Positions 1,263 through 31,606 of a stretch of DNA of 36,723 bases are shown piece by piece. The notes under the pieces were generated by a model. That model did not search any database. It was not told the DNA's origin and was given only the letters and a program-made list of their open reading frames with translations. The DNA is from a virus. Lineage: Duplodnaviria; Heunggongvirae; Uroviricota; Caudoviricetes. The position numbers were made by a program, and so were the translations under genes. The stretch lies in the IMG/VR virus record IMGVR_UViG_2851976983_000007. One strand, written 5' to 3'. Position 1 is the first letter of the stretch, and each line of letters begins with the position of its first letter.

Positions 1263-2155
1263 CTATTTCCAGTTACAAGCAGCTTGAAGTGGTTTTAGCG
1301 CGTTTGACAGGCCGTTTAAATTGAAAGTTGCACTTACAGGGCTCTCATTATAAGGAGTTATTTTTGTATACATTTTGTTTGAGTTGGCTAGTTTTCGGAT
1401 GAAATCAATGTCATTACCTTTATAAAAAACAGCCTTTGTATCTGTAGATACTAGCCAGTTTCGCTCAACTGCTTTCTGTTTATCAAGACGATAAAGCATG
1501 CTGGTTTGTTCAAGGCCTAAATATACATCCCAACTAAGAAATACTTCGGTTTTCTTTTCTCGGCAAGCTATAAACAGAGTGGGAGTAACCGCTTCTCCAA
1601 ATGGAGTTCTGATATAATCATCACTTTCTAACGATAAAATTACATTTTTCGAATCATCAATTGGCGATGTAGTAATGGATGTGTGCCATTTTCCTACATC
1701 TGTGGCTTTCTCTAATTTTGATTCAGCTTGAACAGCTTTATCCTGTGGGAATAGTTTATCGTAGCAGTTTAGTCTGGCTTCTTTATCATTTTCTGCTCGG
1801 CATTTAGATATCTCAGAAAGATTTGGTTGCTGAGCCTCTGTTGTTACTGGCTTTTCCGTTTTAGATTTTGAGTTTACAGATGGAGTAAATGTTGGAGAAA
1901 AAAACGATCATAACAAGATAAACGTCTGTCATCATCTTTCTCATCAGGGCATTGATCTCTGCTTTCGAATTTTTCAGCAACTTTCGTTCGAGTCGGTTGT
2001 ATTGACTTATCGTAACAAGAAAGTCTGTCTTTATTATTTTCTATTGCTCGGCACTGGAGTACTGCATTGAAGTTATTATGTTCAGTTGCTGCGTGAACAG
2101 GCAGTACACTAATTGATATAAATGATGCACCTATAGAAAAAATTATATTTTTCAT
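1263..2155 (-). pseudogene. Secreted Cys-repeat protein gene, reading frame broken at an A7 (minus-strand T7) homopolymer near 1898-1904; N-terminal part 1874-2155 carries a signal peptide, C-terminal part continues in another frame to 1263
   Basis: ORF 1874..2155 starts MKNIIFSIGASFISISVLPVHA; my manual translation shows the 1263..1499 frame is open upstream to a stop at about 1908 with no ATG; motif C-R-A-x-E-N-x-K-x-R-L-x-C-Y-D-K occurs three times across both frames; one extra T would fuse them. Confidence 0.5.
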
Positions 2156-2159
2156 TTTG

Positions 2160-2492
2160 TTATCCTTTTGGTTTAGTAAGAAATACTAAAATTCCGATAA
2201 TGATATCGCCAATAACCCATAAACTTCCAATGGTAATTAAACCTAAGCCTGTACCAATAACTGCACCGGCTTTTTCGGCATCGGATGTAGCATTATTTAT
2301 TATTTCACTAGTGCCTCCCAGTCCAACTAAAAGCGTATAGATCATAAAAATATTAAATAATATAAATATCCACTTAATGAGCTTTCCAAAAAATGAACGC
2401 TTAAGTTTTTTTATTTGTTTACCGCAAGCAGGGCAATACAATGCTGAATCGCTCACCTCTTTCTGGCATTCAGGACATTTGATTAATGCCAT
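2160..2492 (-). CDS. Zinc-ribbon (CPECx13CPACG) membrane protein, function unknown
   Basis: 110-aa ORF; N-terminal CxxC...CxxC followed by two hydrophobic helices; strong SD AAGGAGG about 9 nt upstream of ATG; low GC. Confidence 0.55.
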   Translation of the reverse strand: MALIKCPECQKEVSDSALYCPACGKQIKKLKRSFFGKLIKWIFILFNIFMIYTLLVGLGGTSEIINNATSDAEKAGAVIGTGLGLITIGSLWVIGDIIIGILVFLTKPKG

Positions 2493-2753
2493 GTAATCCG
2501 CCTCCTTTGGATCAATACGAGTTGATATTTGTTACAAAACATTTTGATTTTATCAGATTTTTTTTTATTGATAAGTGTCAATTGATTAGCTGGTATAGAG
2601 TGAGACATATAGAAGGGCAGATCTGTATCAGTAGTGATGCAAAAATCCCACAGTTTCATGGAATTTTTGCATTTAGAGCCGTGAGATAGGGTGCCTTATC
2701 GACCTTACCCTGGCAACCGATTGACGGGGGATTACTCCCCCGTCGCGGTTTCC

Positions 2754-2894
2754 TTACTGCTTACACTGTAAGAACGCCGCAAACTCCGCTCCCCAGAAAC
2801 TCATCCGTATTTCGCACAGCGAACCGTGCAACATCCAGATGATGAGGATTACCGTCACGCAGAACGTGATGGCTGTAAGCGATTTTTGCGACAT
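2754..2894 (-). CDS. Hok/Gef-family type I toxin-like small membrane peptide (46 aa)
   Basis: Manual translation MSQKSLTAITFCVTVILIIWMLHGSLCEIRMSFWGAEFAAFLQCKQ: TM helix then SLCEIR...AAFLxC pattern as in HokA/HokC; AGGAG upstream; GC-rich hairpin GACGGGGGA-GTAA-TCCCCCGTC just downstream (about 2717-2738); below the 60-aa cutoff of the ORF track. Confidence 0.6.
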   Translation of the reverse strand: MSQKSLTAITFCVTVILIIWMLHGSLCEIRMSFWGAEFAAFLQCKQ

Positions 2895-3084
2895 AGCACT
2901 TGCTCCTTTTCCGGAGAGGCGCTAACCTTTCACTTGCTTAGGGTAGACGGTTAGGGCCTCGGTTAAACAAAAGTGTTTTCCGGGGCCTTTCCACATCTGG
3001 CCTTCGGGTATTCCCTCCGACCATCAGCCGAAAGGCACCCGCGCGTAATCTATCGCTTTTTTGTTACTCCGGCAATTCTGCTTG

Positions 3085-3345
3085 TTAATTCTGAGGTAAA
3101 GGCAAACTCATCTGATTGTTTCCCCTGTGTGAAGCTGGTAGCTCATGCCACGGGATACCTTCTGAAGAGTGAACGCCGGAGGCGTGTTTCGATGTGAATT
3201 TATGGAAAGCTTCCAGTGTTGAGAAGCATACGCCGCATTCCAGATTGTTACACTGGTAATACTTTTGCCGCACGGTGTTTGAATCATTTTCCGGACGACT
3301 TGTGCGGATACGGGCAGATGCGCCACAAAGCGGACAACGGAACAT
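3085..3345 (-). CDS. ogr: Ogr-like zinc-finger late-gene transcription activator
   Basis: MFRCPLCGASARIRTSR...YYQCNNLECG resembles P2 Ogr MFHCPLC...HQCQNVNC; strong SD AGGGAGG; located beside D as in P2. Confidence 0.8.
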   Translation of the reverse strand: MFRCPLCGASARIRTSRPENDSNTVRQKYYQCNNLECGVCFSTLEAFHKFTSKHASGVHSSEGIPWHELPASHRGNNQMSLPLPQN

Positions 3346-4679: not shown

Positions 4680-5789
4680 TCACTCTGTTTCTGCTATCCA
4701 TTCCGGGATTTTTGCCTCAAGCTCAAGCTGTGTGGTAAAGCCGCTGTTATCAATGGTGTGCTCGGCTTTCGCAATAATCCAGTCCTGATTATCAATCTCG
4801 CTTTTAAATCCTGTTACCGTGCCATGCATTTCGGGGTAGAGTTCTGCACGTCCACGCACCAGCGTGATGGAAAACGATGCGGCTCCGCGTTGTAGCTGCT
4901 GCCACTTTGCCGCCGCTGCGCGTCTTGCTGCCTGCTCGTTCTGATAAGTCTTGCGTAACACAAACACATTGCCTTCCGCGCCTTCCATATAATCACCTTC
5001 ACGGCTGCTGCTTTTCTCCTTTTTGGGTTTTGGCGGTTTGCGGCGTTTCACGCTGACTTTTTTCTTTTTCCCGTAATTAAGATCAAGCCAGTAAGCGCGT
5101 ACCCCCGTATACGCCTCGCGGTCAGCAATGCGGAACTGATGGCGATCGCCGCTGCTGCGTGTGATGGCGAACGATGGCAACGGCTGGCCCTGTGCGTTTA
5201 CGCCACCGCCGGGCATGATGAATAACAGATTACCGCTTTTTACCGTGGTGATTGCGCCCAGCATTTCCGCCATGCGCGTAAGGAAGGACATGTCGCTTTC
5301 TTCAGTCTGGTCGGCGTGGTCGATTTCGATATCCATCAGCATTTCGCTGATTTGCGGTTTCAGGCCGTACCGATGAGCGATGGCGGATACCACACGTTCA
5401 ACGGTCACATCATGCCAGGACGCCTCACGTTTAACATTAAATTCATCCCGAAAATCTGCGCTTCTGGCTGAAACAGTCAGCCTGTCCGGCGGTCCTTCGT
5501 GAGCGATTTCATCAACAATGTAAGTGCCTTTTTCTGTCAGCGGTTCCCCTTTCCAGCCAATGAGAACCGTCAGACGCGCGCCCCGTGGCGGTAGCTGCAA
5601 CTGGCCATCGGCATCATCCAGCGTGATGGTGAGCTGGTCCGCCTCAAATCCCCGGTTGTCGGTCAGTGACAGGCTCATCAGGCGTTCTGCCACGCCGGAC
5701 AGCGTTTTACCCTCGGCGAGAATATCAAAATCCGGCATTTTCACGGGGTCTGTGCCCTGACTGAGCAATTGCATGGTGGTGTCGGTCAT
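4680..5789 (-). CDS. D: Tail protein D (GPD family)
   Basis: Segments ITRSSGDRHQFRIADREAYTGVRAYW, SFSITLVRGRAELY and SGFTTQLELE parallel P2 gpD; start taken at MTDTTMQLL preceded by GGAGGGAG (track ORF runs on to 5921). Confidence 0.85.
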   Translation of the reverse strand: MTDTTMQLLSQGTDPVKMPDFDILAEGKTLSGVAERLMSLSLTDNRGFEADQLTITLDDADGQLQLPPRGARLTVLIGWKGEPLTEKGTYIVDEIAHEGPPDRLTVSARSADFRDEFNVKREASWHDVTVERVVSAIAHRYGLKPQISEMLMDIEIDHADQTEESDMSFLTRMAEMLGAITTVKSGNLLFIMPGGGVNAQGQPLPSFAITRSSGDRHQFRIADREAYTGVRAYWLDLNYGKKKKVSVKRRKPPKPKKEKSSSREGDYMEGAEGNVFVLRKTYQNEQAARRAAAAKWQQLQRGAASFSITLVRGRAELYPEMHGTVTGFKSEIDNQDWIIAKAEHTIDNSGFTTQLELEAKIPEWIAETE

Positions 5790-5946
5790 CTGCTCCCTCC
5801 CTGTGTGGCATGGTCGCATGTGCGTGCGGAGGGGGTTACTGCTTTTTGTTGTCGCCGTGGCGGGAGAATGGCGCAGGGGTGAGATTACGCGCGTGGTGGG
5901 TGATGATTGTTGCCGAATCATTTAACGGATACAAGGGGCTGAAGCT

Positions 5947-7131
5947 ATGAGTGAAACTCGTTTTCATGGTGCCCGTGTTACGGAAAATACCGACCTGGTA
6001 ACAGCGATTAACGATGTTGATTCCAGCGTTATCGGTATCGTGGCAACGGCGGATGATGCGGACGCGAAGCTGTTCCCGCTGAACAAGCCCACACTGCTGA
6101 CCCGCGTCAATGACGTGCTGGGAAAATGCGGGACAACGGGGACGCTTTATCGTGCGCTTAAGGCCATCGCAGACCAGGTGAGCACAAAGGTGATCGTCGT
6201 TCGCGTGGCTGAACACAAAGAAGAAGACGGAAAGACGCAGGATCAACTGGTTATCGGTGGTTCTGAGGATGACGGCAGCTATACGGGGATGTATGCGCTG
6301 CTTGTTGCAGAGCAGGATGAAAGCATCGGATACCGTCCGCGTATTCTGGCCGCGCCGGAGCTGGACACGGAGGCTGTAACAAAATCCCTGTGCGTGATTG
6401 CAGGTAAACTGCGCGCGTTTGTGTATGCCTCATGTCACGGCTGTAACACGATGGCTGAGGCGATTACCTACCGCCAGAAATTCAACGAACGTGAGGTGAT
6501 GCTCTTATGGCCGGACTTCATCGCCTACAACCCGAAAAGTGGCAAAAACGAAACGTTCCCCGCGCCTGCCTATGCGTGCGGCCTTCGTGCGTACATTGAC
6601 CATGAGCAGGGATGGCACAAATCACTGTCCAACGTTCCGGTTAAAAATGTGCTGGGGATGTCGAGGCATGTGTTCTGGTCGTTACAGGCCGAAGACAGTG
6701 ATGCCAACAGCCTCAACAACAAAGAAATCACGACCATTATTCGTCGCAACGGGTTCCGCTTCTGGGGCAACCGCACACCGGAAACGAACGCCTACATCTT
6801 TGAGGTGTATACCCGAACCGCACAGGTGCTGGCTGATTCAATTGCGGAAGCGCAGTTTGAAACCATCGACAGTCCACTGACGCCTGCGAACGTGAAGGAT
6901 GTTATCAGTGCCATCAGGGCAAAACTGGATTCACTGGTTACTGCCGGGAAACTGATTGGCGCGGAGTGCTGGTATGACGTGGTGGATAACAGCACCACGG
7001 ATTTACGTCAGGGGCGTGTGCGTATTCGCTACAAATATACGCCCGTTCCGCCACTGGAAGACATGGAGCTTTACCAGACGTTTACTGATGAATACTTTGA
7101 ACCCGCATTTGCGGTTCTGGGAGGTGCCTGA
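5947..7131 (+). CDS. FI: Contractile tail sheath protein FI
   Basis: 394 aa, position and size match P2 FI; followed directly by tube gene. Confidence 0.9.
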   Translation: MSETRFHGARVTENTDLVTAINDVDSSVIGIVATADDADAKLFPLNKPTLLTRVNDVLGKCGTTGTLYRALKAIADQVSTKVIVVRVAEHKEEDGKTQDQLVIGGSEDDGSYTGMYALLVAEQDESIGYRPRILAAPELDTEAVTKSLCVIAGKLRAFVYASCHGCNTMAEAITYRQKFNEREVMLLWPDFIAYNPKSGKNETFPAPAYACGLRAYIDHEQGWHKSLSNVPVKNVLGMSRHVFWSLQAEDSDANSLNNKEITTIIRRNGFRFWGNRTPETNAYIFEVYTRTAQVLADSIAEAQFETIDSPLTPANVKDVISAIRAKLDSLVTAGKLIGAECWYDVVDNSTTDLRQGRVRIRYKYTPVPPLEDMELYQTFTDEYFEPAFAVLGGA

Positions 7132-7643
7132 TGGCTGTGCCAAAACATCTTCGCTTTTTTACGCTGTTTGTGGATGGTGAAAACGAAGTGGGTAAGGTGA
7201 CGTCCGTCACTCTGCCCAAACTGACGCGCAAAACCGACAGCTACCGGGGTGGTGGCATGATGGGGGCGGTAAGTATTGATCTCGGTCTGGACGACTCTGC
7301 GCTTGATGCGAGCTTTGTCATGGGGGGCGCAGTTCGTGCGCTGTTCCTTAAGTATGGCGGCACGATTGACGGCACGCTGCTGCGTTTTGCGGGTGAATAC
7401 TACACCGATGCAGAAAGCGACCTGTATGAAGTCGAAATGCGCGGACGTGTGACGGAAATTGATATGGGGGAAGCCAAACAGGGCGAAGCCACATCACACA
7501 CTTACGCCATTAAAAACACCTACTACAAGCTGAGTGTTAACGATCGCCCGTTGTGGGAGATTGACCTGCTGAACTTCATTTACCGGAAGGACGGCAAGGA
7601 CATTGTGTCCGATCGCATCCGTTCCGCGCTTGGGCTTGGCTGA
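7131..7643 (+). CDS. FII: Tail tube protein FII
   Basis: 170 aa, ATGA overlap with FI stop; P2 FII-like size and position. Confidence 0.9.
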   Translation: MAVPKHLRFFTLFVDGENEVGKVTSVTLPKLTRKTDSYRGGGMMGAVSIDLGLDDSALDASFVMGGAVRALFLKYGGTIDGTLLRFAGEYYTDAESDLYEVEMRGRVTEIDMGEAKQGEATSHTYAIKNTYYKLSVNDRPLWEIDLLNFIYRKDGKDIVSDRIRSALGLG

Positions 7644-7697
7644 TAAGTAATATGCAGGCGGCGCAGTGCGTCGCCTCTGACTGAAAGGAGTTTCCTG

Positions 7698-8063
7698 ATG
7701 AAAGAGACGAAAAACATCGATACCGAAAACACGGTAGTTACTGACACTGTGAAAGAAACCAGTGAGCGTGGCGTAAAACTTACCCAACCAATTGAGCGAG
7801 GCGGCGAAAAAATCACGTATGTGGAGATCACCGGGGCTATTGAGCAGGCTGGATCTCTGCGAGATTTGTCGCTGTCTGATGTGCTGAATCTGAAAGCGGA
7901 ATCCATGTTTACGCTGCTGTCACGCGTGACATCACCGCGACTGGATGAAGTGACGATCAAAAAAATGGCATCCCGTGACTTTATTCAGTTATGTGTGGTT
8001 GCCGTAAATTTTTTGAGCGGTGCGGACTCTGGCGGGAAGAACGAACAGGCGACGGAAGCCTGA
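7698..8063 (+). CDS. E: Tail assembly chaperone E
   Basis: 121 aa upstream of the tape-measure gene; contains slippery heptamer. Confidence 0.85.
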   Translation: MKETKNIDTENTVVTDTVKETSERGVKLTQPIERGGEKITYVEITGAIEQAGSLRDLSLSDVLNLKAESMFTLLSRVTSPRLDEVTIKKMASRDFIQLCVVAVNFLSGADSGGKNEQATEA

Positions 8064-8227
8064 TCACGGTTGTGTGCTTTGAGCACATAGAAGACTTTGT
8101 GGCAGATATTGCCGTTATTTTTAACTGGTCGCCCGCCGAAATCTTCATGATGACGCCCGGCGAAGTGGTTAGCTGGCGTGAGCGGGCGGCACTTCGCAGC
8201 GGGAATGCAGACAATGAAGACTCTTGA
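7698..8227 (+). CDS. E+E' frameshift product: frame 0 to about 8015, then -1 frame to 8227
   Basis: TTTTTTG slippery heptamer at about 8009-8015 in frame T-TTT-TTG; the -1 frame ORF (track 7991..8227) runs on to overlap the T start; conserved chaperone frameshift in P2-like and other tailed phages. Confidence 0.7.
8009..8015 (+). promoter_or_regulatory. Programmed -1 ribosomal frameshift slippery site TTTTTTG
   Basis: Seen in sequence; position relative to E and the -1 ORF. Confidence 0.65.
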
Positions 8228-11021
8228 TATCCGGGTCGCTTTCAGCGCCGTTGACAGGCTGACCCGGCCTGCCGAAAACGCCCGCCGCCTGATGGGGCAG
8301 TTTGGTGACTCCATCCAGCGAACGCAGGGGGCGATCAAAAATCTCGAGCGTCAGGCGCGATCATTTGAGCGCGCCCGCGACGCTGTCAGTAAAGCGGATG
8401 CTGGCATATTGAAAGCACGACGCCAGCTTAACGCCCTTAATCAGTTACAACGCACGGGTACAGTGCTCAGCGAAAAACAACAAAAGCTGATGCAGCAGTT
8501 AAGCACCCGGCTTGAACACCTGAATGAATCGCGCACACGTGAAATTCAGAAAATGCGGGAGCTTGGCGGAGAGCTGAAACGCCACGGCATTTCCCTGACA
8601 GGCAGCGATAACACCATCCAGCAGGCCATCAGACGCACCGAACAGTACAACAACCAGCTTGAACGCGAACGGCAGGCGCTTGCGCGTGTAACGCGGGCGC
8701 GTGAGCGGTATTCGCGCGCGCAGGAAACTGCGGGAAAACTGAAAACAGGTGGTGCGCTGGCAATTGGTGCGGCAGCGGCTGGCGGCTATGCTGCCGGGCG
8801 TTTTTTGCAGCCTGCGATCGGGTTCGGGAAAGAGATGTCCCGCGTTCAGGCACTGACGCGAATCGACAAAAACAGCCCGCAGTTTAAGGCGCTGCGTGAG
8901 CAGGCGTTAAAACTTGGCTCTGAAACACAGTTTACTGCGAGTGATGCCGCCAGTGGGCAGAGCTTTCTGGCAATGGCTGGTTTTACTCCGCAGGCCATTC
9001 AGGCCGCATTGCCCGGTGTTCTTAATATGGCGCTGGCAGGTGGCGTCGAACTCGGCGAGACGGCTGATATAGGCTCCAATATCCTCACACAATTCAACCT
9101 GACAGCCGATCAAATGGACCGTGTTGGCGATACGCTGACAGCAGCATTCACCCGGACCAATACTGATTTACGCGCGCTGGGCGAAACCATGAAGTATACC
9201 GGTCCGGTTGCCGCAAAACTTGGTATCAGTCTTGAAGAAGCGGCAGCCATGGCCGGGATGCTTGCCAATAATGGTCTTCGTGGAAGCGATGCTGGTACAG
9301 CCATGCGCGCAAGTCTGTCCCGCCTTGCATCACCGCCAAAAGCTGCGGCTGATGCGCTGAAAGAGCTGGGGGTGTCAGTTGCTGACGCCAGAGGCAAAAT
9401 GCGCCCGATGGAGGATGTGCTGCTTGATCTCTATAAGGCGACACAAAAATACGGACAGGTGGACCAGGTCTCCTTCTTCAAGGACATCGCCGGAGAAGAG
9501 GCGTTCGTTGGTTTGCAGACGCTTGTTGCGGCGGCTGGTTCAGGAGAGCTGCAAAAACTGACCAGAGAATTGCAGGGGGCAAGGGGAGAGGCCGATCGCG
9601 TTGCAAAAGTAATGGCCGATAATCTTGATGGGGACCTGAAAAATCTCGACAGCGCATGGGAAGGTCTTCGTATTCGCATCAGTGATCTGGTTGACGGTCC
9701 GCTGCGTTCTGTCACGCAGTGGCTCACGCGGGTGCTTGAAAAAATCACCTCGCTGGCGCAGGCCCATCCGGTACTGACGCGCCAGCTACTGATAGCAGGC
9801 GGTGCGTTGCTGGCAATGACTGCAACGGTTGGCTCGTTGTCGCTGGCTATTGGTGTGCTTGCTGGCCCGCTGGCAAAACTGCGTCTTGGCTTTTCCCTCC
9901 TGACCGGTTCAATGAATGCTGTCAGACTCCTGCCAGCACTATGGGGAATGGTGACGGGTTCCGTTTCGTTACTGGGGGGCGCTATCGGGGCGTTGTTCAG
10001 TCCGGTCGGTCTTATCGTGGCTGCGCTTGCCGGAGCTGCCGTTCTCATCTGGAAATACTGGGATCCCATCAGGGCATTTTTTGCCGGGGTGTTCAGCGGG
10101 ATTATGGAAAGGCTGACCCCGTTGCGCGAAACCTTTGAACGGTTTGGTCCTGTTTTTGACGCAATCGGAAGCGGGATCAGCCAGGTGTTTAACTGGTTTA
10201 AATCGCTGTTGTCACCGATGGAGTCCAGCAAGGAAACGCTGGATAAATGTACCAGTGCTGGCGAGATATTCGGTAACGTTCTTGGCGGTGCGTTACAACT
10301 TGTTTTGACACCTGCAAAAATGCTACTGGATACGCTGGCGTGGATACTTGAAAAACTTGGCGTCCTTCCGGATGAAGCGGAAAGGGCGCGCAAGAAAATC
10401 GAAGACGCACAGCGTGAGGCCATTCTTCAGGACAAGGTTGCCTTGCTTCAGGGGGACCTGGCGAAAATCAATCCGCCGAAGCCTGTGGAAAATGGCAATG
10501 GCACCGGAGGTGATAACCCCAAAGACAATAAACCGCTCACAGACAGCAATACCGGTACGCTGCGCAGACTCAGCAAAATTGCTGATAACACAGGTAAGCT
10601 GGTTGAGGAGACGAAAAAACGCATTGGCCCCGGCGATATTGTCTTTAAGAACCTGCCCCGAGCACTTGCTGTTCGTGGGGAGTGGCAGGAGCGGAAGATT
10701 GCGCAGGTCAGTAAGCCTGCCCCCGCAATTAATATCACACCCGTGGTCTCGGCTCCGCTGCCTCCGGCGCTGGTCCCTGTTGTTGCGGCCAGCTCCCGCC
10801 CGGTGGCGGAGGCTATACGATCTCCAGTGGCATCAGTTCCTGTAACTTCCCGTAACCGGGAGCCTGTTGCCTCCGGATTTGGTGGTGAAATTCATGTTCA
10901 TCTGCATAACGTTGTTACGCAGAATCCCCGCGAACTGGCGAAACTGGTCGGTGAAATGGTCAGGGCAGAAATGGAACGGCGCGCCCGTGCCGGGCGTGGC
11001 AGTTTTTACGATAAAGATTGA
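8205..11021 (+). CDS. T: Tail tape measure protein T
   Basis: About 940 aa, helical N-terminus and hydrophobic middle typical of tape-measure proteins; start uncertain (GTG 8178, ATG 8205 or 8214). Confidence 0.85.
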   Translation: MQTMKTLDIRVAFSAVDRLTRPAENARRLMGQFGDSIQRTQGAIKNLERQARSFERARDAVSKADAGILKARRQLNALNQLQRTGTVLSEKQQKLMQQLSTRLEHLNESRTREIQKMRELGGELKRHGISLTGSDNTIQQAIRRTEQYNNQLERERQALARVTRARERYSRAQETAGKLKTGGALAIGAAAAGGYAAGRFLQPAIGFGKEMSRVQALTRIDKNSPQFKALREQALKLGSETQFTASDAASGQSFLAMAGFTPQAIQAALPGVLNMALAGGVELGETADIGSNILTQFNLTADQMDRVGDTLTAAFTRTNTDLRALGETMKYTGPVAAKLGISLEEAAAMAGMLANNGLRGSDAGTAMRASLSRLASPPKAAADALKELGVSVADARGKMRPMEDVLLDLYKATQKYGQVDQVSFFKDIAGEEAFVGLQTLVAAAGSGELQKLTRELQGARGEADRVAKVMADNLDGDLKNLDSAWEGLRIRISDLVDGPLRSVTQWLTRVLEKITSLAQAHPVLTRQLLIAGGALLAMTATVGSLSLAIGVLAGPLAKLRLGFSLLTGSMNAVRLLPALWGMVTGSVSLLGGAIGALFSPVGLIVAALAGAAVLIWKYWDPIRAFFAGVFSGIMERLTPLRETFERFGPVFDAIGSGISQVFNWFKSLLSPMESSKETLDKCTSAGEIFGNVLGGALQLVLTPAKMLLDTLAWILEKLGVLPDEAERARKKIEDAQREAILQDKVALLQGDLAKINPPKPVENGNGTGGDNPKDNKPLTDSNTGTLRRLSKIADNTGKLVEETKKRIGPGDIVFKNLPRALAVRGEWQERKIAQVSKPAPAINITPVVSAPLPPALVPVVAASSRPVAEAIRSPVASVPVTSRNREPVASGFGGEIHVHLHNVVTQNPRELAKLVGEMVRAEMERRARAGRGSFYDKD

Positions 11022-11027
11022 GGAGTC

Positions 11028-11522
11028 ATGGCCATGATGATGATCTACGGCATGTTTGTTTTTGAGCTGCGCACGCTGCCGCATCAGCAGTTACAGCAAA
11101 ACAAAAGCTGGCGGCATGTGAAAAATGAACGCGTTAACCGTTCAGCAAGCTGGCAGTATATCGGTGCAGGTGATGATCGCATCGTTCTTTCTGGTGTGCT
11201 TTATCCTGAAATTACAGGTGGCGAAGTGTCGCTGTCGCTGCTGACCACGCAGGCGTATACAGGACGACCCTGGCCTTTGATTGATGGCGTCGGGCAGATT
11301 TACGGCATGTATGTCCTGACCGGAACGAATACGACCCGTTCCGAGTTTGATCGCTACGGTAAGGCGAAAAAGATAGAATTTTCACTGACCCTTGAACGCT
11401 GTGATGAGGATTTGCGGGAGCGCCTGCAATCCTCATCGTTCAGCGATATGCTGTCCGGCTTCAAAGATAAAGTGACATCATCTCTTAACAGCGCGGTCAG
11501 TTCAGTTAAAGGGCTGTTCTGA
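11028..11522 (+). CDS. U: Tail protein U
   Basis: 164 aa, GMFVFELRTLPHQ... resembles P2 gpU N-terminus; follows T. Confidence 0.85.
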   Translation: MAMMMIYGMFVFELRTLPHQQLQQNKSWRHVKNERVNRSASWQYIGAGDDRIVLSGVLYPEITGGEVSLSLLTTQAYTGRPWPLIDGVGQIYGMYVLTGTNTTRSEFDRYGKAKKIEFSLTLERCDEDLRERLQSSSFSDMLSGFKDKVTSSLNSAVSSVKGLF

Positions 11523-11533
11523 TTTAACACAAA

Positions 11534-11570
11534 AACCGCTAATGACCAGATTAGCGGTTATTTTGTTTCC
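11534..11570. terminator. Hairpin AACCGCTAAT-(6)-ATTAGCGGTT followed by ATTTTGTTT; terminator after U, overlapping the 3' end of the invertase ORF
   Basis: Seen in sequence. Confidence 0.5.
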
Positions 11571-12145
11571 TGACTCTTCTCAATTGTTCCGCTTGATTCT
11601 CCTGCGGGGTGGTAACGATAAATCGTCGATATACCAATGCCGTAAATTATTGCCAGTTGTTTTCTGTCGTGCCCGTTTTTGATCAGCCTTGCTATTTGCT
11701 CATGCTGTTCTTTTGTCAGCTTCGGGCGACGTCCGCCTGTGCGCCCTCGTGCGCGCGCTGCAGCCAGTCCGGCCAGTGTACGTTCAACAATTAATTCACG
11801 TTCCATTTCAGCCAGGGCACCCATCACGTGGAAGAAAAAACGCCCCATTGGAGAAGATGTATCTATGCTGTCGGTCAGACTGCGAAAATTAATCCCTCGC
11901 TCCCGTAGTTCCCCGACGAGAGAAATCAGATGTTTCATGCTTCGCCCGAGGCGATCCAGTTTCCAGACAACCAGCGTGTCGCCTTTTTGAAGGCGCTTTA
12001 AAGCGCGTTTTAATCCCGGTCGGTCTGTCTTTGTCCCGCTTAATTTATCTTCAAATATTTGTTCGCATCCTGCACAAACAAGAGCGTTTCGTTGCAGGTC
12101 TGTATTCTGGTCATTTGTTGATACGCGAACATAGCCAATAAGCAT
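11558..12145 (-). CDS. Serine DNA invertase, Hin/Gin/Pin/Cin family
   Basis: MLIGYVRVSTNDQNTDLQRNAL...TLVVWKLDRLGRS...SPMGRFFFHVMGALAEMERELI...GRRPKLT: near-canonical Hin-family sequence with catalytic Ser in RVST; start at second ATG, which has GGGGG spacing. Confidence 0.9.
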   Translation of the reverse strand: MLIGYVRVSTNDQNTDLQRNALVCAGCEQIFEDKLSGTKTDRPGLKRALKRLQKGDTLVVWKLDRLGRSMKHLISLVGELRERGINFRSLTDSIDTSSPMGRFFFHVMGALAEMERELIVERTLAGLAAARARGRTGGRRPKLTKEQHEQIARLIKNGHDRKQLAIIYGIGISTIYRYHPAGESSGTIEKSQETK

Positions 12146-12200
12146 GATCATCCCCCTGAATAAAAACCGGGGATGATGCCAGTTAGCTGTTACCTCTGCA

Positions 12201-12226
12201 TTTTCTTAAACGTTGGTTTGGAGAAG
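12201..12226. other. Candidate invertase crossover site, left (26 bp, 12-2-12: TTTTCTTAAACG TT GGTTTGGAGAAG)
   Basis: hix/gix-like half-sites TTnTCnnAAAC; about 50 bp from the invertase start; inverted relative to the right site. Confidence 0.55.
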
Positions 12227-12925
12227 GGCCGATGGGTTGTTGGCCCGGGCAATGCAATACTGTATGGACAGCTGGTCCGGTATGGTGTTTTGGTTCAACG
12301 GGCGAAATTTTCTGCCTCTGATTACCCTGTGCTGGCGAAGTGTTCCTTCGCTGTATTACCTGAAGCCCGGTGATTTCATTCGTATCTGATGACGGCGAGG
12401 TCAGACGGGTCGAATATTGCTGGCAGGCAGCTACAAACTTTTCTCAGTTTCCGGAATATAGGCGAGGTGCGGGACACGCAATTAACTTCATGATGCATCG
12501 CCGAAATCAGCCAGGATTTCAGATTTAATTTCACAGTAATCTGTGGTGATGTGTGAATTTTTTGCTGTCAGCCGCGAAAATTGCATTTATTTCTGGTGAG
12601 GCTAATAATGAACCTGTTTGATGAAATGGGCTGGCTACAGTGCCGGCGATATGCGTGTTTTATTATGATGCTGAACATCTGAGTATACGGGCTGTCTGAT
12701 GAATATAATACTGCGTAAGTATGCCCGCCTGTTCATGGTATTGCCCTGGCGAACATTGGAAGAGGCAGTATTTACAGGTAAGGATGGACCATGAAAAGAC
12801 CATCGCAATGAGACTGTTATCAATCGAAATGGTCGCTGTAAGTGGATTATATCGGTGCCATCAAAACGTTATGTCAGCTTTACCGTTACGCCATTGATAA
12901 TGGATGGTGAGAATGGGTGACAGAT
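12227..12925. repeat. Left arm of long inverted duplication (about 85-90 percent identical to 13220-13968, inverted), carrying an alternative tail-fibre C-terminal segment and a frameshifted tfa copy
   Basis: Manual alignment of + strand here against the reverse complement of the right arm; many substitutions and 1-nt indels. Confidence 0.7.
12608..12925 (+). pseudogene. tfa' remnant (tail fibre assembly chaperone pseudogene), multiple frameshifts relative to the intact tfa
   Basis: Begins ATGAACCTGTTTGATGAAATGGGCTGG, homologous to tfa ATGAAACCTGTTTTTGATGAAAATGGGCTGG, but stops after about 25 codons. Confidence 0.6.
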
Positions 12926-13157
12926 ACTAAGGCCACACGGTGCCGCAGTAGAGCGCAGAAGCACAGCGCCAGTCACTGATTGATGCTGCAATGGCTTCCA
13001 TCAGCCTGATTCAGCTGAATTACAGGCCGGGCGGAAGCTGACGCAGGCAGAACCACCCGGCTTAACGCCGTGCTGATTCATGCCGGTCGACATCAGCCCG
13101 GCCGATGTCATGCCTGAATGCGGAGCAGCCATTCAATATCTGGCGCTGGTTCGCCGT

Positions 13158-13535
13158 TCAGTGCGCCAGTTGTGCCTTATATTGCACCATTCTCACCATC
13201 CATTTATCATATGGCGTTAACGGTGAAAGCGTGACATAACCGTTTTTGATGGCACCGATATAATCCACTGTAACAGCAGCACCATTTTCGATTGAGTAAA
13301 CAGTCTCATTGCGATGGTCTTCTTCATGGCTCCATCCCTTACCTGTAAATACTGCCACTCTTCCCGGGATGTTTTCGCCAGGGTCAATACCAGTGGAACA
13401 GGCGGGCATACTTACGCCAGTATTAATATATTCATCAGACCAGCCCGTATACTCAGATGTTTCAGCATCATAATAAAAACAACGCATATCGCCCGGCACT
13501 GTAGCCAGCCCATTTTCATCAAAAACAGGTTTCAT
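13158..13535 (-). CDS. G: Tail fibre assembly chaperone (Tfa, N-terminal Tfa domain only)
   Basis: 125 aa; ...PACSTGIDPGENIPGRVAVFTGKGWSHEEDHRNETVY... parallels lambda Tfa ...[39 protein letters not shown]... Confidence 0.85.
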   Translation of the reverse strand: MKPVFDENGLATVPGDMRCFYYDAETSEYTGWSDEYINTGVSMPACSTGIDPGENIPGRVAVFTGKGWSHEEDHRNETVYSIENGAAVTVDYIGAIKNGYVTLSPLTPYDKWMVRMVQYKAQLAH

Positions 13536-13968
13536 TATTTAGCCCTCACCAGAAAGTTAAATGCAATATTTCGCGGTCTGACAGCAACAAAATTCACACC
13601 ATCACCCACAGAGTTACTGGTGAAATTAAATCGTGAAAATCCTGGCTGATTTCCGGCGATGCCATCATGAAAGTTAATTGCGTGTCCCGCACCTTCGCCT
13701 ATATTCCGGCAACTGAGAAAGTTTGTAGCTGCCTGCCAGCTTAATAATCGCGACCACCGTCTGCACCTCGCCGTCATCCAGATACGAATGAAATCACGCG
13801 GGCTTCAGGTAATACCAGCGAAGGAAACACTTTCGCCAGCACAGGTAATCAGAGCAGAAAATTTCGCCCCGTTGAACTTCAAAACACCATACCGGACCAG
13901 CTGTCGATTACAGTATTTGGCATTGCCGCGGAGGCCCAGAAGAACGGAACGCCAATAGCTGGAGCACC
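13220..13968. repeat. Right arm of the inverted duplication (H C-terminal region plus 5' two-thirds of tfa)
   Basis: See left arm; pairing derived by manual alignment. Confidence 0.7.
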
Positions 13969-15030
13969 TTCTCCCAAACCAAGGTATGCGAGAAGACCAG
14001 CAACATCCTTTCCACTCAAATTAGTCAGCGTATTGTCCAGCGGTTGTTTGTCTGCCAGTGCATTAAGCACTGTTGTTGAAAAGTTAGGGTCATTCCCCAG
14101 CGCCGCCGCCAGTTCATTCAGTGTATCCAGTGCCGCAGGGGCAGAACCCACCATTGCCGCAATTGCTGATTTCACAAAAGCTGTGGTGGCAATCTGTGTA
14201 TTGTTGACCGACTGTGCCGCAGTAGGTGCTGTTGGCGTTCCGGTAAGTGCCGGACTCGATAGCGGCGCTTTCAGTGCCAGCGCATTGTTAATGGTGGTGC
14301 TGAATTTCGGGTCATTGTTAATGGCTGCGGCAATTTCTTTCAGTGTGTCCAGCGTGGCTGGCGCACCGTTAATCAGATCGGTAATAGCGGCCTGAACAAA
14401 CTCAGTGGTCGCAATCCGCGTGGTGTTATTTCCTGCGGCAGGCGTCGGCGCTTTTGGTTCTCCGGTAAATGTCGGATTATGTTTCTGCGCATACTGGGTA
14501 TGAGGATCCTGTGCGGCAATGTGGTTTCTCATCTGGTCATCCACATACAGCTTTAATTCCAGGACTTTATCATCCACGTATTTACGGGTCGCCAGTACCA
14601 CCGACGGGTCGATTTTCAGCGTGATGGCTTCGGTGTTCGTGACAACCAGAATCATGCGGATAGTCTGGGTGCGTCCACTGCCTTCCTGCAACTGCGGTTT
14701 GTACGTTTCCGGGCAGTTTGCCACCGCAATGAGTACACCTTCATCATCATAAAGACCAATCTCACGGATCCAGAATCCTCCCTCGTTTTCAGGGATGATT
14801 TGCTCAGCAATAATCTGGCTCTGATTGTTAGGGTCAACACTCAGAAGATTCAGCGGTGCAATGCGTTTCTGGTTAATCAGTTTTGTTTGTGCAGGGTCTG
14901 GTGTTGGTAACACACCATTTGCATCACCAACGGCCATTTGCGTCAGATTCAGCTTACTGCCGAGCATCGTCGCGTTAGCCAGTCGTGCCGCGCCCTGATT
15001 AGTCAGAATGGCGTAGTATTTCACTGTCAT
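13879..15030 (-). CDS. H: Tail fibre protein H: P2 H-like constant N-terminal region, then only 34 aa after the crossover site
   Basis: N-terminus ...MAVGDANG...EGGFWIREIGLYDDEGVLIAVAN...YKPQLQEGSGRTQTIRMI... parallels P2 gpH; 383 aa versus about 670 in P2, so the distal region is short or decayed. Confidence 0.85.
   Translation of the reverse strand: MTVKYYAILTNQGAARLANATMLGSKLNLTQMAVGDANGVLPTPDPAQTKLINQKRIAPLNLLSVDPNNQSQIIAEQIIPENEGGFWIREIGLYDDEGVLIAVANCPETYKPQLQEGSGRTQTIRMILVVTNTEAITLKIDPSVVLATRKYVDDKVLELKLYVDDQMRNHIAAQDPHTQYAQKHNPTFTGEPKAPTPAAGNNTTRIATTEFVQAAITDLINGAPATLDTLKEIAAAINNDPKFSTTINNALALKAPLSSPALTGTPTAPTAAQSVNNTQIATTAFVKSAIAAMVGSAPAALDTLNELAAALGNDPNFSTTVLNALADKQPLDNTLTNLSGKDVAGLLAYLGLGEGAPAIGVPFFWASAAMPNTVIDSWSGMVF
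13969..13994. other. Candidate invertase crossover site, right (TTCTCCCAAACC AA GGTATGCGAGAA), inside the H coding sequence
   Basis: Left half closely matches my recollection of the hixL left half (TTCTTGAAAACC); in frame it encodes AYLGLGEG of H; inverted relative to the left site. Confidence 0.6.
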
Positions 15031-27431: not shown

Positions 27432-27743
27432 TTACTCAGGAAATAACGCCCGGATATTCCCAGCCATCTGGCTGGTTATCTTAGCCACTGGTGCAGACTG
27501 TGCTTCAAACTTTTTTGAGCTGATTTGTGTCACAGGTAACATCTCATCATCAGCCCATGCGGCCAGTCGGTAAGCCTCTGCCGGATTCGTCTTCAGAAGT
27601 GCCAGCCCGGCCAGAAAAGCCACGCGTTGGCCGCTTTTGCGGGCTTCTGGTGTAAGGCTGTCCAGCCAGGCGCATGCTTCTCCTTCGTTCTTGACGGCAG
27701 CTGGCTTCAGATAGAAACTTATCCGTCTGGTTGGTGTTGTCAT
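27432..27743 (-). CDS. parR: ParR-like centromere-binding protein (type II partition adaptor)
   Basis: ISFYLKPAAVKNEGEACAWLDSLTPEARKSGQRVAFLAGLALLKTNP parallels R1 ParR IAFKLNPDVNQTDKIVCDTLDSIPQGERSRLNRAALTAGLALYRQNP; AAGGAG SD; start 5 nt after the parM-like stop; track ORF extends to 27878. Confidence 0.75.
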   Translation of the reverse strand: MTTPTRRISFYLKPAAVKNEGEACAWLDSLTPEARKSGQRVAFLAGLALLKTNPAEAYRLAAWADDEMLPVTQISSKKFEAQSAPVAKITSQMAGNIRALFPE

Positions 27744-27747
27744 TGGT

Positions 27748-28707
27748 TTACTCCTTGTCCATTGCGTACAGCCCATTAACCAGAGCAAACTGTGGCACCC
27801 CGTCCGCGATGAAAGTCGCATTAACTCCGCAGGCTTCGCGGATAGCGGGTGCCACAATCTCCGCCCCGCCACCGACAACCATCACCCGCCCGTAACCCGA
27901 AAAACCCGCCAGCGCGCGGATCACGCGTTGTTTCAGTGTTTCTTCCTTTTCACGAATAACCGCCATCAGGCTGTCGTAATGCGCGTCATTGTGGATGTGC
28001 TGGCGCAGCCAGGCTTCATCATGGCGATGTTCGATAATGGTATTGGCGATGTGGTGACTGGTACGCATACCGTTAGTGGCCATCACCGACAGTACGGCAT
28101 CGGCCATCAGGGAAACGCCTACGTGTGGATCGCAAAACACCTGGCTGATACCTGCCAGTTGTCCCTGAACCTTTGCCACATCCAGCGTGGTTCCGCCTAA
28201 ATCCACAATCAGCAGGGATTCAAACGGACTCATGTCAGCCAGTGCTTTAAAGCCAGCCGGAATGGATTCAGGCATAACCCGTACGTTACGGATAGTGAAT
28301 GCTTCGCCGTTCTGGTACTCCACCGGGCGCATGACGTTCGCTTTTTTGCGGTTGATGTTGGCCATGTCCGGCTGTGCGTTTGTGTCGAAATATTCGCTCA
28401 GTGGCAGGGTGACAACCACATCCACTTCCTGTGGTGTGATGCCTGATTTGACCAGCGCGTGATGAATGGCAATGACATTCACATCGCTGTACTGGTATTG
28501 CGTGTCGGTCGTCTGGACAAAGCGATCGCTGACCGGATCAAAACCATAGCGCACGCCATCAAGCATGTAGTTCGCGGGCTGCGTGCCACCGAACGGCGCA
28601 GACCATTCCGACTTGAAGCTGTTCGGGCTGATGGCGTTGCGGCGTTCGCCGTTCTCAGTCCATGCCAGCTTGATGTTGGTGGAGCCGTCATCGATACAAA
28701 TTTTCAT
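27748..28707 (-). CDS. parM: ParM/StbA-like actin-family ATPase (type II partition NTPase)
   Basis: MKICIDDGSTNIKLAW...YSDVNVIAIHHAL...VMPESIPAGF...LLIVDLGGTTLDV...GYGRVMVVGGGAE matches R1 ParM along its length. Confidence 0.9.
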   Translation of the reverse strand: MKICIDDGSTNIKLAWTENGERRNAISPNSFKSEWSAPFGGTQPANYMLDGVRYGFDPVSDRFVQTTDTQYQYSDVNVIAIHHALVKSGITPQEVDVVVTLPLSEYFDTNAQPDMANINRKKANVMRPVEYQNGEAFTIRNVRVMPESIPAGFKALADMSPFESLLIVDLGGTTLDVAKVQGQLAGISQVFCDPHVGVSLMADAVLSVMATNGMRTSHHIANTIIEHRHDEAWLRQHIHNDAHYDSLMAVIREKEETLKQRVIRALAGFSGYGRVMVVGGGAEIVAPAIREACGVNATFIADGVPQFALVNGLYAMDKE

Positions 28708-28736: not shown

Positions 28737-28850
28737 CGCTTACGGGATTCTGAAATCCCGTTTTTGCCTGTTTTATGCGCGCTTCATATATCGCGGCGCG
28801 TTTTTTGCTCATTTACGGGATTTGTGAATCCCGTTTCTGTCTGTTTTTTG
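28737..28850. promoter_or_regulatory. Two direct copies (about 73 bp apart) of a 20-bp palindrome ACGGGATT-N4-AATCCCGT each followed by a T-rich tract, upstream of the parM-like gene; candidate parC-like centromere/operator
   Basis: Seen in sequence at about 28742-28761 and 28815-28834; architecture resembles ParR sites flanking the par promoter. Confidence 0.5.
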
Positions 28851-28987
28851 TTTCCACTGGTCAGGCCACCCCGCAGCAGGTCTGCTTTGCGGCGGGCGCG
28901 TTCAGTGGTTTCACTGATTCTCTGTGCGTGCTCTGCGTCGCGGATGGCGCGCAGCATGTCAGAAAGCACGGTAACGGGTGTTTTCAT
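28784..28987 (-). CDS. Hypothetical small protein (67 aa) between A and the par module; its 3' end overlaps the palindromic repeats
   Basis: ORF only; weak SD. Confidence 0.3.
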   Translation of the reverse strand: MKTPVTVLSDMLRAIRDAEHAQRISETTERARRKADLLRGGLTSGNKKQTETGFTNPVNEQKTRRDI

Positions 28988-29185
28988 GGTGTTCTGGTCC
29001 TGCTGAAGTGTGGATGCCAGGCGTGCGGCGGCTTCGGGGTCTGATGCCCCCAGCTGTTCCAGATAGCTGGCGACCGGGTTATGGCGGATCTCCGTGCTGC
29101 TTACGCCGTGGTTACGGCTCAGGCGCTGCCAGAGCTGCGTGATCCGGCTGTCCGGTCGGGTATCCGGTTTGCGTACAATTTCAAA

Positions 29186-31606
29186 TCACTGCGGTGCAAT
29201 GATGCTGCCGTCGACGTACAGACTGCCGCCCCGTAACAGGTGCTGCATCTGCTGTTCACCGATATGCAGGCCGAGAGATTCAGCAGACTCCCGCCATTCT
29301 TTAGCGAGTAACTCGTGGTTATCAGGCAAAGGCCGTGGCTGTTTGCGGCTCTGTGTCCAGTTCTGCATTTCATCACTGCTGTTTTTTGCCTGTTTGTCAC
29401 GCAGCGAACGCATCAGCGCCCGGCGTTCGTGCCGTTTCAGTGAGCGCATCCATTCATTCACGTCAACGCCGTCAGGAAGCTGCGGCCACGGTGCTGGCCG
29501 TTCTTCCGGCTGTTCTGTCCCGTTGTTGTCCGTTTCCTGTACACGGGGACAGTTATTGCCACGAGTCCAAGGGGCGGCAGGGCCGCCCTGAAGGTCAAAA
29601 CCATTTTCGCGGGCGCTGTCTTCCGCTTCCGGTTTACGTCTTACCAGCTTCCAGTTATCCGGATGTGTGCACACACGGGAAGACTCCCCGATGAGCGGTG
29701 ACCAGATCCCGTAAATCTGTACGCTCTGTTCGCCGTAATCGTTCAGCTCATCTGCGAGGTCGTAGGCGGTGCGAATCAGGTAGTCTTTGCGTGGAACAAG
29801 TACGCCGCCCTGTTTTTCAATGTAGGAGGCAAAACACCCGGCATCAGCGGCAGCGAGCACTGCATCCATTGCGTCATCCTTCAGTCGTTGCGGGCCTTCC
29901 GGGTTGCGTGCCATCTGGCTGGCAAGGCGGCGCAGTTCACGCCACACCTGACGGGAGGGGATGCCAAAGAACTGGAACTGGCGGACCCGGTGAAGGCGCG
30001 CCCAGCCGATGGCGCGCTCCACGCTCTCGGCCATTGATTTTCCGGTTTCGTGGTCAACGCGTGGCTTGCCCGTTTTCGGGTCGATACCATCCACGGCGCG
30101 GCTGTCCAGGTTCTTTCCGATGTAGGTGGCGATGTAGCTGGTTGGCGTGCCTTTTGAGCCGTCGACGTACTCCGCCTTAAAACGCGGAGTTATGTCATCG
30201 CCCAGCTCGTGGCGGTCTTCCTGAATGGCAATATCGCAGACGTGGGACACGATGGTTTCAATCTCGTCCGGATGTGCAAAGACCATCATATGCCAGTGCA
30301 CAGTGCCGTCATGGTGAGGCTCCACCGTGCGGATGCCATACCAGCGAAGACCGTCGCGGTTCAGTTTTTTGCGGACCGCCGCAAAAAACGTGTTAACCAG
30401 GTAATCGCTGGAGTCGCGCATGGTGGCCCCGTTCCATTTGGGATTCGGATGACCGTTCTCTGTTGTGGCGTGGTATTTTGACGGGCAGGTGACAGTCAGA
30501 AACACCGCTCTGTCGCCACGGGCTTCGGCCAGAAGTTCCAGTCCCTTCATGGTGGCCATCATTTCTGCCTTACGGTGAACCGGGTTACTTACTCCCGCGT
30601 AATACACCGTCTCGAGATCAATCGTGAACCCGTCTTCATTTTCCAGCATGAAACTTTTCAGGAAATCGCGTGTTTTCTCGCGCTGTGCGCGAAACTCGCT
30701 TAACGCGTCCTGGCTCAGATAGGGTGATGTTTTTCTGGAAACCAGACAGGCGGCGCGGAGTTGTTCTTCTCTCCACTCGCAACGTAACAGCCACAGTTTG
30801 CGTTTCCACCATTCCGCACAGGTCAGGCGAAGGATTGCGCCCGGCAGCAGCTCCGTGTCCGGTTCGTTCCTCCGGTCTTTGTCTGTTGTCAGTGCGTCAT
30901 AATGTGGAGGCATGGCGTGCAGGTGTAACGCCATGCGGGCCAGCATCTGATACGCCTTCAGCGTTACATCCATGGTCAGTTCGCCATCAGTAGCGCCAAA
31001 GCCATCGCAGAGTTTTTCGAAGGTGCTGCTGAACATCGCCGCCGTCATGGTGGCCAGCGTCTGTATCTGGTGTTTGTTGAGCTGCGGCAGGTAAAGCAAA
31101 TCGTCCAGGCGTTCGCGTCCGGCAAGGGAGCGATAACCCGGTGTCAGCCAGCGGTGATCGGTGCGGTCCAGACGTTCGAATATTTTGCACAGGGTTCCGC
31201 GCGCGTAGCGTTCCGCCTGCCAGCTCTTTTTGCCTTTCTGACGATCGGCTTCCTGCTTCTTGCGCAGGAAGGAGAGGTGGCGAATAAGCGGATCGCGCAG
31301 ATAGGACGGCAGCAGGCGCAGCGAGGCCATGGCTTCATCCACCGCGCCGCGTGCCTGTTTTCTGGCGTCTCCTGCCAGTGTGATGGTTTTGTCCTGTTTT
31401 TCCTGTGCGTCCAGGCTTTTATTAATCAGGTTGCCCAGCGGCGTGGCGGAGAACGCCGCATCAGCCATTTCCTGGCGGCGCTCGTTCTCTACCCGGTAGG
31501 CATCCAGCCAGGAGGAAAGCGCGGATTCAGGAGCGGAGATCCCCGTTCCTTCACGCCCCACTGCGTGGCGCGGTTGTTGCCAGTCCCTGATGTACTCTGC
31601 CGTCAT
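29186..31606 (-). CDS. A: Replication initiation protein A (rolling-circle endonuclease)
   Basis: 806 aa; ...[24 protein letters not shown]... parallels P2 gpA ...[22 protein letters not shown]... Confidence 0.9.
   Translation of the reverse strand: [806 protein letters not shown]

Follow-up and report, generated by a model that had tools for sequence, protein, structure and literature searches.

The tail-fibre locus and its source

Does the tail-fibre locus considered here encode an inversion switch, and does the sequence deposited between its two crossover sites represent a real DNA molecule? The locus lies in a stretch of 36,723 nucleotides (nt; the window, in which all coordinates below are positions), where a serine DNA invertase gene stands next to the tail-fibre gene H. 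A preliminary description had proposed a switch in the style of the Mu G or P1 C segment, in which inversion would fuse the constant part of H to a different C-terminus of 52 amino acids (aa). Our analysis upholds the switch and dismisses this C-terminus. The locus is very probably a tail-fibre host-range switch of the Gin/Cin/Pin/Hin type in a Gemsvirus prophage, the segment of which has been recorded as a chimeric, deletion-ridden consensus, with mixed orientations as the likeliest cause.

The 3-kb region around the switch is 100% identical to enterotoxigenic Escherichia coli (ETEC) strain 504211 (NZ_CP025865.1), and RefSeq positions 4066542–4103264 of this record, likewise 36723 bp in length, were mapped to the window. 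The window is an entire P2-family (Gemsvirus) prophage with flk on one side and pdxB on the other. Strain 504211 is one of a set of Indian CS6/CS21 ETEC isolates (PMC8923064), and the complete genomes in the source study of these isolates were obtained on the PacBio RS II platform (PMC6446980). Among named phages, Escherichia phage 500465-2 (Gemsvirus, Peduoviridae) comes closest, with 98.5% identity across the 70% of the 3-kb query that could be aligned; of 5426 complete E. coli genomes, 3462 contain matching homologues of the switch region.

The features on which the switch depends are the constant part of H (Hc), to which a variable C-terminal part (Sv or Sv') is joined, and the two crossover sites:

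13995–15030, minus strand: constant part of tail-fibre gene H (Hc), with an N-terminal tail-collar fibre domain (PF12571), from the list of open reading frames (ORFs) and translations of the fusions
13969–13994, plus strand: right crossover site (cixR-like), 26 bp, TTCTCCCAAACCAAGGTATGCGAGAA, within H at the Hc/Sv junction, encoding YLGLGE
12201–12225, plus strand: left crossover site (cixL-like) in its recombinant, flipped-state form, one G short in the inner half-site

Both orientations of the segment in intact relatives

In strains B7A and TW10573 and in phage 500465-2, the segment between the sites measures 1.82 kb and holds two unrelated modules that face each other, one consisting of Sv and the chaperone Tfa (197 aa), the other of Sv' (121 aa, with a gp53-like C-terminal domain, PF21882) and Tfa' (146 aa); both chaperones belong to PF02413. 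With Sv next to Hc, a fibre of 501 aa is encoded, with Sv' next to Hc one of 468 aa, and both fusions are in frame. A constant N-terminus outside the segment and two C-termini with their cognate Tfa proteins inside it, the hallmark of the Mu G and P1 C type, are hence present in these relatives.

An in-silico inversion of B7A, with the exchange placed at the central TT/AA dinucleotide, yielded the sequence of strain 503025; the segment showed 0 differences, and the 9055 bp compared contained 2 single-nucleotide polymorphisms. Between the two strains, the outer half-sites stay in place while an A/G marker in the inner half-sites moves with the segment, and these marker bases confine the exchange to the 7 bp TTGGTTT, core included. 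A 700-nt query for the flipped Hc–Sv' junction was matched with 100% identity in 503025, 503440, and 503829, and was covered to at least 80% in 31 genomes; the parental Hc–Sv junction is present with 100% identity in B7A and TW10573 and was covered to at least 80% in 28 genomes, and phage 500465-2 is in the parental orientation as well. Of six near-identical prophages, three have been deposited in each orientation, and their junctions coincide exactly with the predicted core, which bears out the proposed switch of the Mu G or P1 C style. Inversion with exchange at the central dinucleotide, as expected of a DNA invertase, is seen here across deposited prophages rather than within one culture; for P2-like E. 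coli prophages, coexisting orientations have been shown in culture (PMC4272514). The change of fibre C-terminus would presumably affect host range.

The annotation of H by the Prokaryotic Genome Annotation Pipeline (PGAP) appears to depend on the orientation of the segment. Two 'incomplete' pseudogene fragments stand in place of H not only in the window (13535–15030) but even in B7A (5180–6685 of the B7A locus), where the ORF of 501 aa is intact; a single H gene is called in the 503025 orientation.

Crossover sites

The intact relatives have two sites with a TT/AA core, exactly two in the 46.5 kb of 503025, and all four of their half-sites fit the pattern TT(C/A)TCNNA(A/T)ACC, which was drawn from annotated phage records and is common to P1 cix and Mu gix. 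Alignment of the sites to the hix/gix/cix consensus, a check put forward in the preliminary description, came out in favour of the assignment, with 20 and 21 of 26 positions shared with cix, including the same TT/AA core, and 17–18 of 26 with gix; the value of 21 is that of the right site against P1 cixR.

Two inverted sites of 26 bp had been proposed, and the right one stands without qualification. Translation confirmed that it falls in H at the junction of constant and variable parts, within the stretch encoding ...AYLGLGEG. Compared with an idealised cix-type palindrome it deviates at 1 position, a fit that 0 of 100 shuffles reached; nowhere else does the window match this pattern, and the number of matches expected by chance is 0. 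The left site, as assembled in the window, is TTTTCTTAAACG TT GGTTTGG-AGAA, compared with TTTTCTTAAACGTTGGTTTGGGAGAA in 503025 and TTTTCTTAAACGTTGGTTTAGGAGAA in B7A. The site is in frame with its right-hand partner, and both the TT core and the outer half are correct, but its inner half-site is GGTTTGGAGAA versus GGTTTGGGAGAA or GGTTTAGGAGAA in the relatives, and with one G missing the site as assembled fails the 26-bp pattern. The missing G is probably a consensus error. No third crossover site, as in a Min-like shufflon or that of enteropathogenic E. coli (EPEC), was found in the window or in the 46.5 kb of 503025 with the idealised cix pattern at up to 3 mismatches. Some P2-like relatives have three sites and more variants (PMC4272514), compared with two in the lineage studied here.

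The deposited segment

Between the two sites, the record of 504211 falls into two parts that overlap at a join:

12226–13146, plus strand: left part, Sv and full Tfa (197-aa type), flipped (503025-like), garbled, collinear with 503025
13125–13968, minus strand: right part, 3'-truncated Tfa (13200–13535) and Sv (13535–13968), unflipped (B7A-like), from alignment

With the sister strain 503025 as reference for the error counts, the ~34.9 kb outside 12201–13994 contain a single difference, a 1-nt deletion at 1897, while 161 deletions of one base each, 0 insertions, and 6 mismatches fall within the segment itself. On either side, the errors end precisely at the crossover site, and a deletion-only spectrum bounded in this way is not that of mutational decay. 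The left part carries the greater share of the errors: of 1082 bases in the 503025 reference, 136 have been deleted and 1 is mismatched, with 0 insertions, so that about 12% of bases are missing. It reads Sv, full Tfa, and then the first bases of Tfa' in reverse complement; it also aligns to the reverse complement of Sv–Tfa of B7A, and, judged by these alignments, it is not a distinct alternative module. The right part shows few errors (25 deletions, 0 insertions, 5 mismatches), and at the join (13125–13200) words from both orientations are interleaved.

As assembled, the window thereby contains the Sv/Tfa module twice, in garbled form, and no other module there. The Sv'–Tfa' module, 100% identical in five relatives, is not in the window, and 504211 was not among the 40 best records for an Sv'–Tfa' query, all of them at least 99.3% identical. 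The inner half-sites point in the same direction: one real molecule derived from the relatives' segment would carry one inner half-site of the Sv type and one of the Sv' type, so that the two Sv-type ones in the window argue for an artefact. The assembled H ORF ends early, at 13879, with 383 aa versus 501 or 468 aa in the relatives, because of a deletion. PGAP annotates the left part as frameshifted pseudogenes, and four frameshifted or incomplete pseudogenes in the segment overall.

These findings also decide the fate of the alternative C-terminus that had been proposed to end at 12373. The reading frame across the sites does hold in the record, but the sequence predicted behind it, GLEKGRWVV...LPEAR, is a consensus artefact. 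It is not 'different' either: it is the same Sv as in the right arm, reverse-complemented and with ~12% single-base deletions, whereas the true alternative is the 121-aa Sv' with its own chaperone. The deposited 504211 segment (PacBio RS II), flipped on the left and unflipped on the right, is not a real molecule. Most likely, assembler and polisher made a chimeric consensus from a DNA preparation that held both orientations, as we infer from the error pattern.

The single difference outside the segment lies in the TagO gene (1263–2155, minus strand), where a 1-nt deletion in an A-run at 1897 relative to 503025 leads PGAP to call TagO frameshifted. This deletion is probably another consensus error.

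The invertase gene and its predicted enhancer

The recombinase and the element predicted within its gene are located as follows:

11558–12145, minus strand: serine DNA invertase (WP_000905058.1, 195 aa), with a Gin-like N-terminal catalytic domain and a Hin-like C-terminal helix-turn-helix (HTH)
12056–12127, minus strand: predicted Fis-dependent recombinational enhancer (sis-like), nt 19–90 of the invertase gene, from homology

The invertase gene is complete and near-canonical, as had been described, with an intact ORF at 11558–12151 (minus strand; annotated start at 12145). The protein matches the Pfam families Resolvase (PF00239, 1.3e-50) and HTH_7 (PF02796, 1.6e-13) and, in the PDB, Gin (3UJ3/4M6F, E about 1e-100) and Hin's DNA-binding domain (1HCR, 1.9e-12). 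Ser9 is present within MLIGYVRVST, and in its size, N-terminal resolvase domain, serine, and C-terminal HTH the protein corresponds to the DNA invertase subfamily (Hin/Gin/Cin/Pin). Its residues 1–120 are identical to Mu Gin at 118 of 120 positions and to P1 Cin at 99 of 120, while residues 121–183 agree with Mu Gin at only 37 of 63; the recognition-helix region is Hin-like (LAIIYGIGISTIYRYHPA versus LAIIFGIGVSTLYRYFPA in Hin).

The invertase gene is also a mosaic at the nucleotide level, nucleotides 1–360 being about 93–96% identical to Mu gin, after which identity collapses. This suggests a recombination breakpoint where the catalytic domain adjoins the DNA-binding domain.

A Fis-dependent enhancer inside the invertase gene had been named as a feature to look for, and a candidate region is indeed present. 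The P1 record annotates an enhancer at nt 19–90 of cin, and the predicted enhancer occupies the same position here, with 69 of 72 nt identical to Mu gin and 56 of 72 to P1 cin. The Fis sites within it are less clear: a simple pattern gave two matches to the Fis consensus, both degenerate, at nt 34–48 and 71–85, with centres 37 nt apart. Dependence on Fis and the enhancer would follow from the homology to gin and cin together with the established Hin/Gin mechanism (PMC3798978).

Proposed mechanism and comparison with known systems

According to the mechanism that we propose, invertase dimers would bind both of the inverted 26-bp sites, the one in H and the one immediately upstream of the invertase gene, and the bound sites would synapse with an enhancer that lies at the 5' end of the latter and carries bound Fis. 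Cleavage at the central TT/AA dinucleotide and rotation would then invert about 1.82 kb, thereby setting either Sv and Tfa or Sv' and Tfa' in frame behind Hc for synthesis of the 501-aa or the 468-aa fibre.

The Mu G segment with Gin has the same layout, in which Hc and a first site are followed by the converging modules Sv–Tfa and Tfa'–Sv', a second site, and an invertase gene transcribed away from the segment. Further likenesses to Mu are the near-identity of the first 120 residues (118/120) and of nt 19–90 (69/72), the 26-bp sites, and the distance between site core and start-codon ATG (67 nt in Mu, 68 nt here). Mu differs in the size of its G segment (about 3 kb versus 1.82 kb) and in the gix core (TC/GA versus TT/AA); moreover, the sites here match gix at only the 17–18 of 26 positions given above, the DNA-binding domain has diverged towards Hin (37/63), and the phage belongs to the P2 family. 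P1 with its C segment and Cin offers the most similar sites (cix, 20/26 and 21/26), the TT/AA core, a GGTAT outer half in the fibre gene, and the annotated enhancer at nt 19–90 of cin that coincides with the one predicted here. In P1, however, cin is transcribed towards the segment and cixL overlaps its 3' end, the C segment comprises 4.2 kb, and the N-terminal identity of Cin is lower (99/120).

Closest of all are the P2-like E. coli prophage loci (EPEC E2348/69; 500465-2, pro483, P88, Cartapus) and e14 with Pin, which share setting and gene content; nothing of substance distinguishes them from the locus in the window, except that the 504211 record alone is garbled. In the record of phage 500465-2, a DNA invertase and two tail-fibre assembly genes are annotated, and coexisting orientations have been demonstrated in EPEC P2-like prophages and in e14 (PMC4272514). 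The Salmonella Hin/hix system shares the Hin-like recognition helix; it likewise has 26-bp sites, and its enhancer is located in the recombinase gene at a distance of about 100 bp from one of them (PMC3798978), but hin lies inside its own invertible segment and switches a promoter, whereas here the C-terminus of a protein is switched.

Weighing the alternatives

Several points weigh against the interpretation as an inversion switch recorded in chimeric form. Fis binding and enhancer activity are predictions from homology, and a scan for sigma-70-like promoters upstream of the invertase gene found none. That both orientations coexisted in the 504211 culture is deduced from the error pattern and not from reads; 503025 and other sister assemblies of the same project are clean at the switch locus, so mixed orientation does not always garble a consensus. 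The enrichment of the deletions in homopolymers is mild (60% versus a base rate of 48%), and a pure homopolymer error mode is not claimed. Finally, an internal stop in the replication gene implies some genuine prophage decay.

One alternative view is that the deposited sequence is real, in which case the segment would have decayed to a frozen, pseudogenised inverted duplication of Sv–Tfa, with Sv'–Tfa' lost, the left site damaged, and the switch dead. The four frameshifted or incomplete pseudogenes annotated by PGAP, the left site shortened by 1 nt, and the internal stop in the replication endonuclease, common to 504211 and 503025, would all fit. Yet 161 deletions next to 0 insertions and 6 substitutions in 1.8 kb, beside ~34.9 kb with one difference, resemble no mutational spectrum, and the two arms meet in an interleaved blend of two sequences without a junction. 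Inverted repeats of ~0.9 kb would, in addition, be unstable in E. coli. We consider genuine decay of this kind unlikely. A related variant, to which we assign a still smaller chance, grants that 504211 truly carries an aberrant inverted duplication, Sv–Tfa facing Tfa–Sv with Sv'–Tfa' lost, and attributes the deletions to difficulties that the long inverted repeat posed for polishing; such a duplication would have arisen by faulty invertase action or by recombination between oppositely oriented sister chromosomes, and would leave the phage locked into a single receptor specificity.

Comparably improbable is a chimeric consensus with another assembly problem at its root, for instance reads recruited from other P2-like tail-fibre segments of the same genome. 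Related segments do occur elsewhere in the genome, as the 3-kb query matches the 504211 chromosome in 5 places, but the left part equals the flipped state of the same prophage, recombinant left site included, with one mismatch; PacBio reads normally span 1.8 kb and anchor in unique flanks, and the errors end exactly at both crossover sites. Taking the record literally, with inversion exchanging the normal H C-terminus for a distinct and functional one of 52 aa, has the least to recommend it and is, in our estimate, extremely improbable. The frame is kept across both sites in the record as given and the ORF reaches 12373; the encoded stretch is nevertheless made up of frameshifted pieces of the same Sv (both KFSASDYPVLAK and LPEAR match Sv of the right arm), it is followed by no intact chaperone ORF, and the relatives have the different, gp53-like Sv' of 121 aa in that position. 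As a distinct domain, the 52-aa C-terminus was refuted by alignment to B7A and 503025.

Significance of the locus

Tail-fibre switching driven by an invertase is textbook knowledge for Mu, P1, and e14. The switch described here is real but of a well-known kind and adds little biologically. Searches of the literature gave no paper on inversion in this particular phage. The short, novel-looking C-terminus, its sole unusual-looking feature, is an artefact. Of wider interest is that, in a RefSeq 'complete genome', the stretch precisely delimited by two crossover sites can be a chimeric consensus full of indels, which then leads to pseudogene calls and spurious 'alternative' ORFs. The locus is a clear example of an invertible segment corrupting a long-read 'complete' assembly, and a cluster of errors that are all deletions, with inverted sites at its limits, may serve as a flag for a culture heterogeneous in orientation.

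Prophage context and gene order

The switch had been placed where P2 has its Z/fun locus, which is correct for one of its two sides. In P2, H–G are followed by fun(Z) on the opposite strand and then by FI...U and D. In the window, the invertase gene likewise comes after the tail-fibre genes, as fun(Z) does after H/G, but on its other side it borders on the 3' end of gene U; the block FI-FII-E-T-U is reversed relative to P2, with the result that the invertase gene and U are convergent. Between them lies a further element:

11534–11559, no strand assigned: bidirectional terminator hairpin between the convergent U and invertase genes, with a 10-bp stem and a T-run on both strands

The order with the reversed FI–U block is common to the window and phage 500465-2, and a U-type tail-protein gene adjoins the invertase gene in P88 and others as well. 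Inversion of this block by the invertase was considered and rejected: nothing resembling a crossover site borders it on either side, and 500465-2, P88, and others have the same arrangement. Within the clade, the reversed block appears to be fixed. The tail operon FI-FII-E-T-U itself (region 4680–11522) occupies the strand opposite to its P2 orientation, and D (4680–5921, minus strand) is divergent from FI (5947, plus strand), the two starts being only 25 bp apart, so any promoter of either gene must sit in the coding sequence of the other.

The gene for a P2 gpA-like replication endonuclease (28784–31606, minus strand) has an internal stop at about 29183, its listed ORF of 806 aa running from 31606 down to 29186; the stop is common to 503025, whereas the gene is intact in B7A, and the prophage of the Indian lineage may be replication-defective. 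Beside it lie a ParM plasmid-segregation gene and a partitioning/stability gene (27432–28707, minus strand), unusual cargo for an integrated phage. A second cargo cluster, at the prophage end between ogr and flk (1263–3345), comprises a Hok/Gef toxin, a zinc-ribbon protein, and TagO, which is associated with the type VI secretion system. B7A carries an extra IS1 insertion beside flk.

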